Shown piece by piece: positions 1-3,442 of a stretch of DNA of 3,442 bases. The DNA lies in sequence record PQ561397.1, one strand, 5' to 3'. The notes below the pieces were generated by a model, which had not been told where the DNA came from, did no database searches, and saw only the letters and a program-made list of their open reading frames with translations. Position numbers and translations under genes: made by a program. How positions within the stretch are numbered: the first letter of the stretch is position 1; each line of letters begins with the position of its first letter. The DNA comes from Escherichia phage Ec1-ASingh.

Positions 1-1425
1 GAAGTCTATGAAGCTGCACATACCCGCCTGACTACCGGCGGTAAATCTACAGTTCTCGATAGACACACCGTTAATGTGGGTGGTGGCTGTTGAATCCGGA
101 CCCGCGGCTAAAATTACTGCTTGCCCGGAAATATCACCAATTACCCCTGACACAACAGCATTGTACAGGTATGTACCCGCTCCCGCTGATTCTGCCCCAT
201 GCAGAGCCACATAACAGCCGCGTGTGTATCCGGAGATAATTGAATCTCTGTACCAGGTATCATGTTGGTGTAGCTCCACTGAACACGCTATAACTTGCGC
301 CCTTGAACTCACCGCACGGAATATGCAGTTATCTACACCACTGAAAGGACAGTTAACATATACGGTACTGTGGTCCGCGTTGTTAGCACTCTGTATCAAA
401 TTAATAAACTTACAGTTAGATACCTTACAATTAGACCCATACCCATTCCAGCCAAGGGTAACACCCCAAGTAACATCACCGTTCTGGAAAGTAATACCGG
501 TTACTGAGCAGTTGTAGCTGCGACCAAAAGCGATACCGTTGCGTAACTGTGATGTCGCCCCAAAGTCATAACCACCAAAGTCTATCGTACCGTTGCCGTG
601 AATATGGCAATTATCGAGATTACCGGAGCTTGCAGGGTCACCATTATCAAAGCCTACAAACACCTGAAATGACGAGGAGGCCAAAGCAGGCCCTACTTTA
701 ACAGTACCGTCTAGCTTAATACTTACATTGCTTTTCAATTGTATCAGGCCGCTGTGACCCGATACAGGTCCGGTGCTAATGCTATTCAGATACCATGTAC
801 CTTCCGGTATATGTAGTGTGCCGCCGCCGTTTGTGTTCAGGTAGTCTATAGCTGCTTGCAGATACTGACGGCTGTCAACGCTAACCCCAGGCTGAATCAC
901 ATCCCCGGATGAGTCACAATGAAAATCCCACAGGCTGACCGTATCATCTAATTTATCAGCAACCGTTCTTTTTGTGGTGCTTAGGCTGCCGTCGTACGAG
1001 TACCCAATCAGAGAAGCCCCGCTAAATTCGGACAAGTCGATTCGTAACGCAGAGCCGTCTATAAGTTTCCATCCTGTTGTCGGGGATGAGGATGCTGGAA
1101 CAATCTTAGGATACGCACCAGTCCAGGAGTAGTACTGACCATCGCCACCCGGCAACGGCCAGAGTACTATCTTGTCCTCGTCCCCGGATGCAAGAGTACC
1201 TCCAGAATCGAAATTAAAATCAGCCACGGCAGAACCAATGCTTTTAAGAACCGCAGGGAGCGTCTTTTGCACCTGTCCGGTTACCGCATTGGTCGCGTAA
1301 TCAATATCCGCACCCCCAGCAACACCGCCGGATTTACCAGTGATAACCTCGGCTTCGAAAATCTGGTGTTTTTTGGCGGTTTGTAAATCCGCCAGGCTTA
1401 AAACGTCACCGCATCCGCTTGACAT
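1..1425 (-). CDS. Tailspike / receptor-binding protein, 3'-partial (475 codons in window, C-terminus beyond position 1): N-terminal virion-attachment module plus right-handed parallel beta-helix (pectate-lyase-3-like fold), predicted capsule or O-antigen depolymerase
   Basis: ATG at 1423-1425 (minus) preceded by a Shine-Dalgarno sequence. I checked all 475 plus-strand triplets in this frame (positions 1-3, 4-6, ...) and none is tta, cta or tca, so there is no minus-strand stop down to position 1. Hand translation: MSSGCGDVLSLADLQTAKKHQIFEAEVITGKSGGVAGGADIDYATNAVTGQVQKTLPAVLKSIGS...DFHCDSSGDVIQPGVSVDSRQYLQAAIDYLNTNGGGTLHIPEGTWYLNS...NCHIHGNGTIDF...YNCSVTGITFQNG...SNCKVSNCKFINL...VNCPFSGVDNCIF...IENCRFTAG. 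The D-x-SGD...AIDY...GGGTLHIPEGTWYL entry motif and periodic Asn-Cys rungs are typical of beta-helix glycanases and phage tailspikes. Absent from the ORF track only because it runs off the window without a stop. Confidence 0.85.
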   Translation of the reverse strand, partial: MSSGCGDVLSLADLQTAKKHQIFEAEVITGKSGGVAGGADIDYATNAVTGQVQKTLPAVLKSIGSAVADFNFDSGGTLASGDEDKIVLWPLPGGDGQYYSWTGAYPKIVPASSSPTTGWKLIDGSALRIDLSEFSGASLIGYSYDGSLSTTKRTVADKLDDTVSLWDFHCDSSGDVIQPGVSVDSRQYLQAAIDYLNTNGGGTLHIPEGTWYLNSISTGPVSGHSGLIQLKSNVSIKLDGTVKVGPALASSSFQVFVGFDNGDPASSGNLDNCHIHGNGTIDFGGYDFGATSQLRNGIAFGRSYNCSVTGITFQNGDVTWGVTLGWNGYGSNCKVSNCKFINLIQSANNADHSTVYVNCPFSGVDNCIFRAVSSRAQVIACSVELHQHDTWYRDSIISGYTRGCYVALHGAESAGAGTYLYNAVVSGVIGDISGQAVILAAGPDSTATTHINGVSIENCRFTAGSQAGMCSFIDF

Positions 1426-1430
1426 ATAGA

Positions 1431-1437
1431 GTCCTCT
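1431..1437 (-). promoter_or_regulatory. Shine-Dalgarno sequence (AGAGGA within AAAGAGGA) for the downstream tailspike gene; 6-nt spacer (CUCUAU) to the AUG
   Basis: Minus-strand mRNA reads ...AAU UAA AGAGGA CUCUAU AUG UCA AGC...; plus strand tcctct at 1432-1437 is the reverse complement of AGAGGA. It sits directly after the upstream stop codon at canonical spacing from the ATG (revcomp of cat at 1423-1425). Confidence 0.6.
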
Positions 1438-3442
1438 TTAATTAAAACCATTGCTGAATCCGTCGGAGAAACCGCTGCCGTATGGCGCGACGCCGTCGTA
1501 TTTATAGAATCCGTCGTCATAGTTGTAGCCCGTAATCTTGACCGTGCGGTCATCGCCAGGGTCGATTGAAGAAACAACTATCTTCTGAGCATTATGCCTT
1601 GCTTCGTTGCCGAATGAAAACTCAGTTTTTAGTGCGCTATTCCCCGTGTAGATTGCTTCCTCTGGCGCAGAGAGCATAATCACCTCGCGGTCGTGGCTTC
1701 CTTTGATAACAGAGATGCTTTGCACCGAGCCATCGCGCTTCTTGAGGATGATGGAGTGATCGTCGCCTGGGGTAAACGAAACAGGCTGAGACAGCGTAAG
1801 TGTAAGCCCGTTAACGGCAACAACATAGCCATCCTGCGGCGCGATACGCGAGCCTTTAACGACACTGATTACGCCACCAGGGGTAGCGAGTGCTCCCTCT
1901 TCGGTAGCTTCGAACTCTACGACAACTTTACTTAACGCGTTGCGTTGGTAGCGACGCCACGCCAGCCAGTACGCTTGCTGGTAGTTGCGCACGCCTTTCG
2001 ATTCGTATTCCTCGGTGTTTGCTCCGAGTTCTTCCGGGATATAAATTGTTTCCTGTACGTTAGTATCCGGGTCGATGTACGAGAACGACAGGCTATCGTA
2101 AGTTGTAGAATCGTTGAACGTGCGGGTCCATTTCTCCGTACCGGTAGTTTTGCTGCGGTGGGTGAACACCATTTCAGGCCCAGCAACCGGACGGTCGAAT
2201 CGCAGCATAATATCCGCACCTTTACGGTACGCAGTACAGAACACGGCTTCCGCTATGGCCTGAACAATGTCCTGCATGGTTGTGTCGTAGTCGTCGAACG
2301 TATAGCAGAACTGACCCGCTAATTCACTTCCGAAATAGGACTCAATCTCTTCCTGCACCGCAAGTAACTTGTCCATGTTTGCCGTCGTCAGCTCCAGATT
2401 ACCCACCGCGGGGTCGCGCGCCAGTCGGATTAGCGACTGCACCGCCTGCGTGTTCGGGGTCATTACAGTATCGAATACCCCATTTCCGAGGTATTTGTAA
2501 CACATCTCAGTCGCAATCATGCGCAGTTCAGGGTTGTCAATACTGGCGGCCCGCGGTGTCTGTTTACGGGCGCAATGTACTGTTGTCCGGTTGCCGTAGT
2601 GCGGGGTTGTGTCCAGAGACTGCCCGTACAGGTTGATGAATGTTATCTCATCGCTTACGGTACCGTCGTAGTCCTTATCAAAATTCGTTATACGACGCAT
2701 ACGGGCGCGGAAACGCGATGCGGTAGGCAATTGCCCGTAGATAGACGTGCCAACGTAATCCGTGCTATTACCGGTAACGGTGCCTTGTACGGTGTAGATA
2801 TCACCAATCGGGTTACGCTGAGAATCGATCATCTGGTACTGGAGTTCTACGGTTACATTGGCTCGGCTATAACCGCCGTCGTATTTGTAGAGGCCGTTCT
2901 GCCCGGCAACGTTAGCAAGCACCCGGTCAACTTCTCCGCGCACCATGTAATACCAGTCGGTCAGGGATACGTCGTAGGTGTCTCTCGGACCAATGAAAGT
3001 ATCAGAACGCTCTGTTAAGGTATACGTCTGCCCACTGGTTAACGCGTCCCAATTAGAAGCACCATTCACCGCCAGTCTTACTTCGAAGTCATCGACATAT
3101 AAAACCTCAAACGAGCCGTTAAGGTTAGTGACGCCTGCAACGTCAAAGTTGCTCAGCACCGCGACATCACCGACGCTAAGAAACTCAGAAAAAGCGGAGT
3201 CACCCGACGGGTCATAGATGTAGCCGGTGTTTGAAATACGTTTCGCGGTGCCATCGGCGCTTGGGTTAGCCCCGATGTCGTTTGGCGCTTTCAGTACAAT
3301 ACCGTCAACGTCGTCGTTGGAGTATGTCACATAGAGTTTCTGGTCAATGACGTCCCCGATTTGTAGCTGCGGAGATGTGGTGTTGTTCGGGGAGGTATAT
3401 GGCGCATACACGGCAACAGAGGAGCCTGTGATGTCACTTATC
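1438..3442 (-). CDS. Tail-tip / central hub protein, lambda gpJ-like (host specificity protein J family, hub domains only); 5'-partial, true start lies beyond the window end
   Basis: Uninterrupted minus-strand reading frame from the window edge (3442) to the TAA at 1438-1440 (revcomp of tta). The track's 657-aa ORF starts at a GTG (revcomp of 3409-3411) with no Shine-Dalgarno upstream, and the frame stays open for 10 more codons to the edge (...ISDITGSSVAV-YAPYT...). Motifs I recall from lambda J hub domains: RARMRRIT (about 2689-2712; lambda NIRMRRMT), FCTAYRKGADIMLRFDRP (2188-2241; lambda FCSAMRCMPVWNGQTLTFVQDRP), GYVVAVNGLTLTL (lambda GGRVLAVNSQTRTLTLD), DPGDDRTVKITGYNY (lambda ENDDGTYAITAV). 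The protein ends soon after this region with a Gly/aromatic-rich tail instead of lambda's FN3 repeats and receptor-binding domain. Confidence 0.85.
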   Translation of the reverse strand, partial: ISDITGSSVAVYAPYTSPNNTTSPQLQIGDVIDQKLYVTYSNDDVDGIVLKAPNDIGANPSADGTAKRISNTGYIYDPSGDSAFSEFLSVGDVAVLSNFDVAGVTNLNGSFEVLYVDDFEVRLAVNGASNWDALTSGQTYTLTERSDTFIGPRDTYDVSLTDWYYMVRGEVDRVLANVAGQNGLYKYDGGYSRANVTVELQYQMIDSQRNPIGDIYTVQGTVTGNSTDYVGTSIYGQLPTASRFRARMRRITNFDKDYDGTVSDEITFINLYGQSLDTTPHYGNRTTVHCARKQTPRAASIDNPELRMIATEMCYKYLGNGVFDTVMTPNTQAVQSLIRLARDPAVGNLELTTANMDKLLAVQEEIESYFGSELAGQFCYTFDDYDTTMQDIVQAIAEAVFCTAYRKGADIMLRFDRPVAGPEMVFTHRSKTTGTEKWTRTFNDSTTYDSLSFSYIDPDTNVQETIYIPEELGANTEEYESKGVRNYQQAYWLAWRRYQRNALSKVVVEFEATEEGALATPGGVISVVKGSRIAPQDGYVVAVNGLTLTLSQPVSFTPGDDHSIILKKRDGSVQSISVIKGSHDREVIMLSAPEEAIYTGNSALKTEFSFGNEARHNAQKIVVSSIDPGDDRTVKITGYNYDDGFYKYDGVAPYGSGFSDGFSNGFN

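Follow-up and report, generated by a model that had tools for sequence, protein, structure and literature searches.

The tailspike of phage HK620 (gp9; PDB 2VJI, 2VJJ, 2X85 and others) is an endo-N-acetylglucosaminidase (PMC8217332) that cleaves O18A1 and O18A lipopolysaccharide (LPS), but not O18B or O18B1 (PMC6024685). Tailspike protein 1 (TSP1) of the Kuttervirus EP75 (gp167, AVZ45057.1; Ackermannviridae) forms haloes on the O18A strain DSM10809 (O18A:K1) and none on O18A1, O18B or O18B1 strains (PMC8217332). The catalytic pairs named in the same work are D339/E372 in HK620 and D384/E417 in EP75, and a Gly-to-Phe change in EP75 TSP1 was suggested to shut the pocket that takes up the glucose branch of O18A1 (PMC8217332). 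The Kagunaviruses K1ind1-3 (GU196279-81) have E. coli O18:K1:H7 as their recorded host. They are described as K1-capsule-independent and their spikes as HK620-like, the latter in a statement that cites the HK620 paper (PMC11641727); the K1ind GenBank note already reads 'C-term similar to HK620 Tsp'.

We analyzed a 3,442-nt stretch of Escherichia phage Ec1-ASingh (PQ561397.1), hereafter the window, which as a whole is 93% identical at the DNA level to K1ind1-3. Both real genes of the window lie on the minus strand (Table 1). The tailspike open reading frame starts at position 1425 and runs off the left edge, leaving 475 residues visible. From its collinearity with the K1ind3 coding sequence (ADA82474.1, L001:3260-5425), the complete protein would have 721 residues, with the last ~246 beyond the left edge. 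The PHROGs profile phrog_20900 (tail spike protein) matched with 1022.9 bits, aligning tailspike residues 1-475 with profile positions 1-475 of 721. In K1ind1-3 the same gene, with the same start codon, occupies the same position after a gene of the TipJ family. The C-terminal 667 residues of the TipJ-family protein are visible in the window (3442-1438) and were recognized by NCBIfam NF040662 (E=1.9e-114, 382.8 bits against a cutoff of 140) and by phrog_469 (E=6.9e-206); its K1ind3 homologue carries the annotation 'putative tail protein'. This gene is context and lies outside the enzyme. Promoter-like and terminator-like sites in the window were at chance level when compared with shuffles, and Rfam at gathering thresholds gave no match in the window. 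Plus-strand open reading frames within positions 1-942 (≤97 aa) are antisense to a strongly supported gene and were dismissed.

Table 1. Features of the 3,442-nt window (residue numbers are those of the tailspike).
Feature	Coordinates	Strand	Basis
Tailspike gene, residues 1-475 of ~721	1..1425	-	Translation; K1ind3 collinearity; phrog_20900
HK620-type right-handed beta-helix module, predicted endoglycosidase, residues 162-475	1..942	-	phmmer, identities, AlphaFold, Foldseek, megablast
Span with seven Asn-Cys dipeptides (codon pairs 607-612, 508-513, 427-432, 412-417, 349-354, 325-330, 49-54)	49..612	-	Translation, shuffles, DSSP, conservation
Glu384 codon, corresponding to HK620 catalytic Glu372 and EP75 Glu417	274..276	-	Invariant alignment column
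Asp351 codon, corresponding to HK620 catalytic Asp339 and EP75 Asp384	373..375	-	Invariant alignment column
Linker/neck, residues 56-161, common to K1ind phages and weakly like Tail_spike_N	943..1260	-	PF18668, alignments, phrog_29731
N-terminal ~55 residues, conserved at the DNA level across Kagunavirus; presumed virion-attachment segment	1261..1425	-	megablast
Spacer between tailspike and upstream gene, 12 nt; ribosome-binding site AGAGGA at 1437-1432, 6 nt upstream of the ATG	1426..1437	-	Sequence reading
Upstream gene, N-terminus cut: TipJ-family host-specificity tail-tip protein	1438..3442	-	NF040662, phrog_469

The sequence-only reading had proposed that positions 1-942 encode the beta-helix catalytic domain of a phage tailspike, and homology, fold and active-site residues all bear this out. 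A phmmer search of PDB aligned tailspike residues 131-468 with residues 9-347 of the HK620 tailspike chain (E=1e-141), and tblastn against HK620 gp9 gave 61.4% identity over 340 aa. Over residues 131-475 the window protein is 97% identical to K1ind3, 74-75% to EP75 TSP1 and 61% to HK620; over residues 162-475 the values are 97.5, 78.5 and 64%, respectively. Related Kutterviruses share the EP75-like tailspike. The identity to HK620 is unevenly distributed, at 79-83% over the N-terminal cap and the first rungs and only 26-36% after residue 426, which implies that part of the binding surface differs from that of the solved complex. Current Pfam has no model over the HK620 helix, and scans at E≤0.1 and E≤10 detected no significant beta-helix or pectate-lyase family in positions 1-942.

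The AlphaFold model has short repeating strands and a pLDDT mostly of 80-95 for residues 160-475, from an input alignment that was shallow (8 rows) because the homologue search gave only 8 proteins and missed those of K1ind and EP75. When the model was compared with PDB by Foldseek, the best 26 matches were all HK620 tailspike entries (E ~1e-30 to 2e-30), with a TMq of 0.63-0.64, to be read against a query of which only 66% is ordered; other right-handed beta-helix glycosidases and epimerases followed. Structure prediction with Foldseek, a check of the kind that the sequence-only reading had suggested, thus returned a beta-helix whose nearest match is an enzyme with an acidic catalytic pair rather than a non-enzymatic fibre.

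Both carboxylates of that pair are conserved. In the alignments, the window protein, K1ind3, the tailspike of a prophage in E. coli strain E9, EP75 and HK620 all share the residues at D351 and E384 without exception, together with the motifs that flank them, NADHSTVY and CSVELHQHD. The columns were paired with D339/E372 after applying an offset, as published HK620 numbering omits Met1, and the HK620 E372Q mutant chain in PDB carries Q in exactly the Glu384 column. The span thus combines the sequence homology, the right-handed parallel beta-helix fold (in the model) and the catalytic pair of an HK620-type module.

The seven Asn-Cys dipeptides reported for this domain, at residues 272, 305, 332, 337, 358, 366 and 458, are exactly where the sequence-only reading placed them. 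They are strongly enriched: when residues 162-475 were shuffled 20,000 times, the mean number was 0.77 and seven was never reached. A spacing of 21-33 residues throughout did not hold, however, as consecutive gaps are 33, 27, 5, 21, 8 and 92 residues. DSSP applied to the AlphaFold model ordered each rung as a long strand, a loop, a short strand, turn 1, a three-residue strand, turn 2 and a further three-residue strand, and placed six of the seven dipeptides in two-residue turns between short strands. The registers that follow were assigned from the DSSP string of the model, not from coordinates: NCx[I/V] at 272, 305 and 332 falls in turn 1 and NCxF at 337, 366 and 458 in turn 2, whereas the register of Asn358-Cys359 is ambiguous (either turn 1 with a bulge of three residues or the last part of the long strand). 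Within one register the spacing is 26-33 residues, that is, one rung. The 'periodic ladder' thus resolves into two partial turn registers in which Cys is kept more than Asn: every relative has the Cys at six of the seven positions, and the Asn gives way to D, K, S or G at 332, 337, 366 and 458. Asn turns and buried stacks are known from other beta-helix proteins, and the Asn-Cys pattern fits them. Judged from the model, the dipeptides would be a structural feature and not a catalytic one.

Likeness to HK620 and to the prophage spikes begins at residue ~162, and what precedes it has other affinities. Megablast matches to other Kagunaviruses (fFiEco02, K1G, K1H and others) begin at window positions 1250-1292 and extend rightward to 3442 at 90-96% identity. 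The genus-conserved N-terminus, together with the location of the gene directly downstream of the TipJ-family tail gene, in the same order as in K1ind3, marks a Kagunavirus tailspike anchor. In the linker, PF18668 matched residues 95-117 below its cutoff (E=4e-5, 24.1 bits against 25); residues 61-130 are 41% identical to EP75 TSP1, and phrog_29731 matches residues 1-135. AlphaFold assigned a pLDDT <50 to residues 1-159. The P22-type head-binding domain (PF09008), which HK620 gp9 matches with E=1.3e-64, gave no match in the window protein, and residues 1-130 are 21-27% identical to HK620. As far as sequence can tell, the window tailspike is not a whole-protein orthologue of HK620 gp9, because the P22 head-binding domain is absent. 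It reads instead as a three-part mosaic: residues 1-55, residues 56-161, and an HK620-type helix from ~162. The full K1ind3 protein matched PF18781 (Phage_spike_2; E=2.7e-7, 31.3 bits against a cutoff of 25), and PF22424 (HK620_9_C) remained below its cutoff (17.2 against 27 bits).

The three described systems and the prophage spikes differ from the window protein in distinct ways. K1ind3 is 97% identical over the 475 visible residues, with 14 amino-acid differences (e.g., N332, D in K1ind3, and H276, Y in K1ind3), and 100% identical from residue 351. At the DNA level it is 99-100% identical over window positions 1-600 but only ~91% in the neighbouring tail gene. The ~91% value marks a separate isolate or lineage in which the same spike module is found, and the disparity between the two genes indicates that the module was shared more recently than the backbone. 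EP75 TSP1 has a helix 75-88% identical to that of the window, with the catalytic D/E pair kept and a C-terminal half of the same type. It differs in having a full Tail_spike_N domain and in being part of a branched four-spike myovirus complex, and its identity is only 23% over residues 1-60. HK620 gp9 shares the fold and the catalytic Asp339/Glu372 but carries the P22-type head-binding domain where the window protein has the Kagunavirus N-terminus.

The P22-like prophage tailspikes are found in E. coli O18 genomes. Such spikes, e.g., that of strain E9 (WP_261306811.1, NZ_CP104500.1), are 100% identical to the window protein from residue 351, and have a P22/HK620 head-binding N-terminus and an HK620-like first half of the helix (in E9 up to ~residue 340). 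At the DNA level the prophage spikes (n=6) match all or part of window positions 1-936 with 82-92% identity, and the three that reach 671-936 are 82-88% identical. They are therefore mosaic within the gene itself, and the junction lies near residues 340-351.

By megablast, the module (window positions 1-936) was present in P22-like prophage tailspikes of 6 of 5,426 complete E. coli genomes. With O18 wzx and wzy queries taken from UTI89, the O18 genes were detected in 69 of the 5,426 genomes (1.3% background). All six prophage hosts have the O18 cluster: five are among the 69, and the sixth was recognized by annotation (an O18 flippase and a frameshifted O18 wzy). The association has a hypergeometric P of 3e-12, which assumes strain independence and is weakened by the presence among the six of several poultry isolates that may be clonally related. 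Six O18 hosts out of six, together with the O18:K1:H7 host of K1ind, point with good confidence to the O18 O-antigen as the substrate.

These data suggest that positions 1-942 encode the HK620-type beta-helix of a K1ind-type Kagunavirus tailspike that most likely cuts the E. coli O18 O-antigen, a reading to which we give a probability of roughly 0.85. The specificity, previously listed as unknown, is narrowed by the HK620 homology, by 75% identity to the O18A-active EP75 TSP1 and 97% to K1ind1-3, and by the restriction of prophage copies to O18 genomes. The suggestion of an anti-capsule enzyme has not stood up, given that the predicted target is the O-antigen and not the capsule, and that the nearest phages are the K1-capsule-independent ones.

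That the module is a beta-helix depolymerase acting on something other than the O18 O-antigen, such as a capsule or another O-antigen, is improbable, although it ranks first among the alternatives. It draws on the low identity to HK620 in the last, C-terminal third of the helix seen in the window (residues 426-475) and on an activity that is here read from sequence. The same 50 residues, however, are 84-88% identical to EP75 TSP1, whose O18A activity is experimental, and have 100% identity with the tailspike of the E9 prophage, whose host genome is O18; the O18 serotype of all six prophage hosts and the isolation of the capsule-independent K1ind phages on an O18:K1:H7 strain likewise speak for O18. 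Still less probable is a spike that recognizes the O18 O-antigen and has ceased to cleave it. Non-enzymatic beta-helix fibres exist and the activity of the window protein is predicted, but both carboxylates and their flanking motifs are invariant, and EP75 TSP1 is active with the same motifs.

A pectate-lyase-type polysaccharide lyase, acting by beta-elimination rather than by hydrolysis, is very unlikely. The sequence-only reading had seen an N-terminal pectate-lyase-3 signature, and the residues it relied on are in place (DFHCDSSGD from residue 167, EGTWYL up to 213; residue 162 is encoded at window position 942). There is also a weak likeness in the N-terminal cap to a galacturonidase deposited as 'Pectate lyase' (PDB 5olp, E=0.018) and to an NCBIfam rhamnogalacturonidase (E=0.009, 14.8 bits against a cutoff of 500), both sub-threshold matches over residues 178-241, and K1ind spikes have been placed in PF12708 (PMC11641727). 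The signature itself was not significant, however: PF12708 (Pectate_lyase_3, now Pect-lyase_RHGA_epim) had no match at E≤0.1 on the 475-residue protein, and its alignment at E=0.68 (10.1 bits against a cutoff of 27) covers another stretch, residues 292-339. Beta-elimination requires uronic acid. The O18 repeat is without uronic acid as described (PMC8217332; PMC6024685), and the nearest homologue of solved structure has been described as an endo-N-acetylglucosaminidase.

The GenBank name 'tailspike 63D sialidase', which K1ind1-3 and EP75 ORF167 carry, would imply an endosialidase that degrades the polysialic acid of the K1 capsule. This reading is refuted at the sequence and fold level and can be set aside: endosialidases are absent from the PDB matches at E≤1 and from the 50 Foldseek matches listed, no sialidase family was found in Pfam, PHROGs or NCBIfam, the HK620-type beta-helix accounts for all of residues 162-475, the K1ind GenBank note confines the 63D similarity to the N-terminus, and the true K1-dependent Kagunaviruses K1G and K1H, which are endosialidase phages, have DNA in common with the window only from ~1250 rightward. 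The P22 tailspike chain was also absent among the PDB matches at E≤1 and among the 50 Foldseek matches listed, in agreement with the earlier view that the domain is by sequence neither the P22 endorhamnosidase nor an endosialidase.

If the window protein is an O18 O-antigen endoglycosidase, a trimeric spike would bind O18 LPS O-antigen chains along its beta-helix and would hydrolyze them as an endo-N-acetylglucosaminidase does, with Asp351 and Glu384 as the carboxylate pair. Shortening of the O-antigen would then allow the phage tail tip to reach the outer membrane. The module would be grafted onto the Kagunavirus-specific N-terminus, which would anchor the spike to the tail beside the TipJ-family protein.

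Whether the spike prefers O18A or O18A1 cannot be read from the window, which ends at residue 475, before the HK620 glucose-pocket loop and the Gly/Phe position. The sole alignment column with Gly in HK620 and Phe in EP75 (HK620 G468, EP75 F509, K1ind3 F476) lies one residue past the window edge. At this proposed glucose pocket, the Gly of HK620 and the Phe shared by K1ind3 and EP75 suggest a different tolerance of the O18A1 glucose branch. Since the module most resembles the EP75 TSP1/K1ind variant, its preference by analogy is likely to be for the unbranched O18A repeat. We tentatively consider, as a possibility that we hold to be less than even, that the second half of the K1ind/EP75-type helix is a specificity cassette restricted to unbranched O18A and shuffled by intra-helix exchange near the catalytic Asp (residues 340-351) among lytic siphoviruses, temperate P22-like prophages and Kuttervirus myoviruses. 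If so, the window allele could differ from HK620 in its O18 subtype range, and recombination within the helix would offer a natural way to re-tune specificity for O-antigen subtypes.

The window tailspike is already known, being a 97%-identical allele of the K1ind tailspikes deposited in 2010. As a discovery it carries little weight, and its practical value lies in annotation correction: the name 'tailspike 63D sialidase', given to K1ind and transferred from there to EP75 ORF167, misleads, since the enzyme is predicted to act as an endoglycosidase on the O18 O-antigen rather than as a sialidase on the K1 capsule. In phage therapy aimed at O18:K1:H7 strains (neonatal meningitis, uropathogenic and avian pathogenic E. 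coli), the spike would target the O-antigen beneath the capsule. The locus also illustrates clearly how a single catalytic module serves the tails of siphoviruses, podoviruses and myoviruses, with a recombination junction inside the helix.

The tailspike gene of Escherichia phage Ec1-ASingh contains two mosaic junctions, at window positions ∼1250–1292 and ∼936–942. Similarity to other Kagunaviruses, the endosialidase phages K1G and K1H among them, is restricted to the rightward side of the first, and matches to HK620 and to the prophage tailspikes are confined to the leftward side of the second. GC content is 45–47% at positions 150–750, inside the beta-helix module, vs. 50–54% elsewhere in the window, which would agree with a different origin for this module.

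The tailspike of the prophage in E. coli E9 is itself an intragenic mosaic, as revealed by comparison with residues 340–351 of the window protein. Its head-binding domain and the first half of its helix are HK620-like up to about residue 340, but from residue 351 the protein is 100% identical to the window protein; the junction adjoins the catalytic Asp (D351). A tailspike fragment in a draft genome (GCA_046518805.1) overlaps window positions 1–382, with 95.6% identity at the DNA level and 100% at the protein level over the overlap.

When compared with the tailspike of the Kagunavirus phage K1ind3, the window tailspike (1–1425) carries 14 substitutions, every one before residue 333. Among them is N332, which makes one of the seven Asn-Cys pairs; this position is Asp in K1ind3, EP75 and the E9 prophage, but Asn in HK620, as in the window protein.

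The product name "tailspike 63D sialidase", given to the spikes of K1ind1–3 (GU196279–81) and passed on to EP75 (MG748547, ORF167), is misleading, because their resemblance to phage 63D is limited to the N-terminus, and the part responsible for catalysis is of the HK620 type and contains no sialidase domain.

An O-antigen polymerase-like gene lies directly beside the tailspike in two of the prophages; its position is taken in HK620 by an "O-antigen modification protein". The GCA_046518805.1 fragment also adjoins an integrase. Among the six O18 genomes with the prophage spike, that of E. coli 20AR0354 (NZ_CM132272.1) has a frameshift in its chromosomal O18 wzy.

Coordinates of the tailspike, tail-tip and O-antigen features
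Feature	Source	Coordinates	Strand	Remark
TipJ-family host-specificity tail-tip protein gene	window	1438-3442	minus	upstream of tailspike gene; N-terminus cut
"Tailspike 63D sialidase"	K1ind3	L001:3260-5425		
"Tailspike 63D sialidase"	EP75	L003:1003-3267		
"O-antigen modification protein"	HK620	L002:3445-4035		
Prophage tailspike fragment	GCA_046518805.1	L004:1-1123		contig start/edge
O-antigen polymerase-like gene	GCA_046518805.1	L004:1264-2367		
O-antigen polymerase-like gene	E9 prophage	L005:3016-4119		
Prophage tailspike	E9 prophage	L005:4260-6389		
O18 wzy	20AR0354	L008:10059-11193		

The upstream TipJ-family gene shares only ∼91% DNA identity with K1ind3, whereas the spike helix (window 1–600) is 99–100% identical. 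Judged from these identities, the spike module looks to have been shared more recently than the phage backbone.
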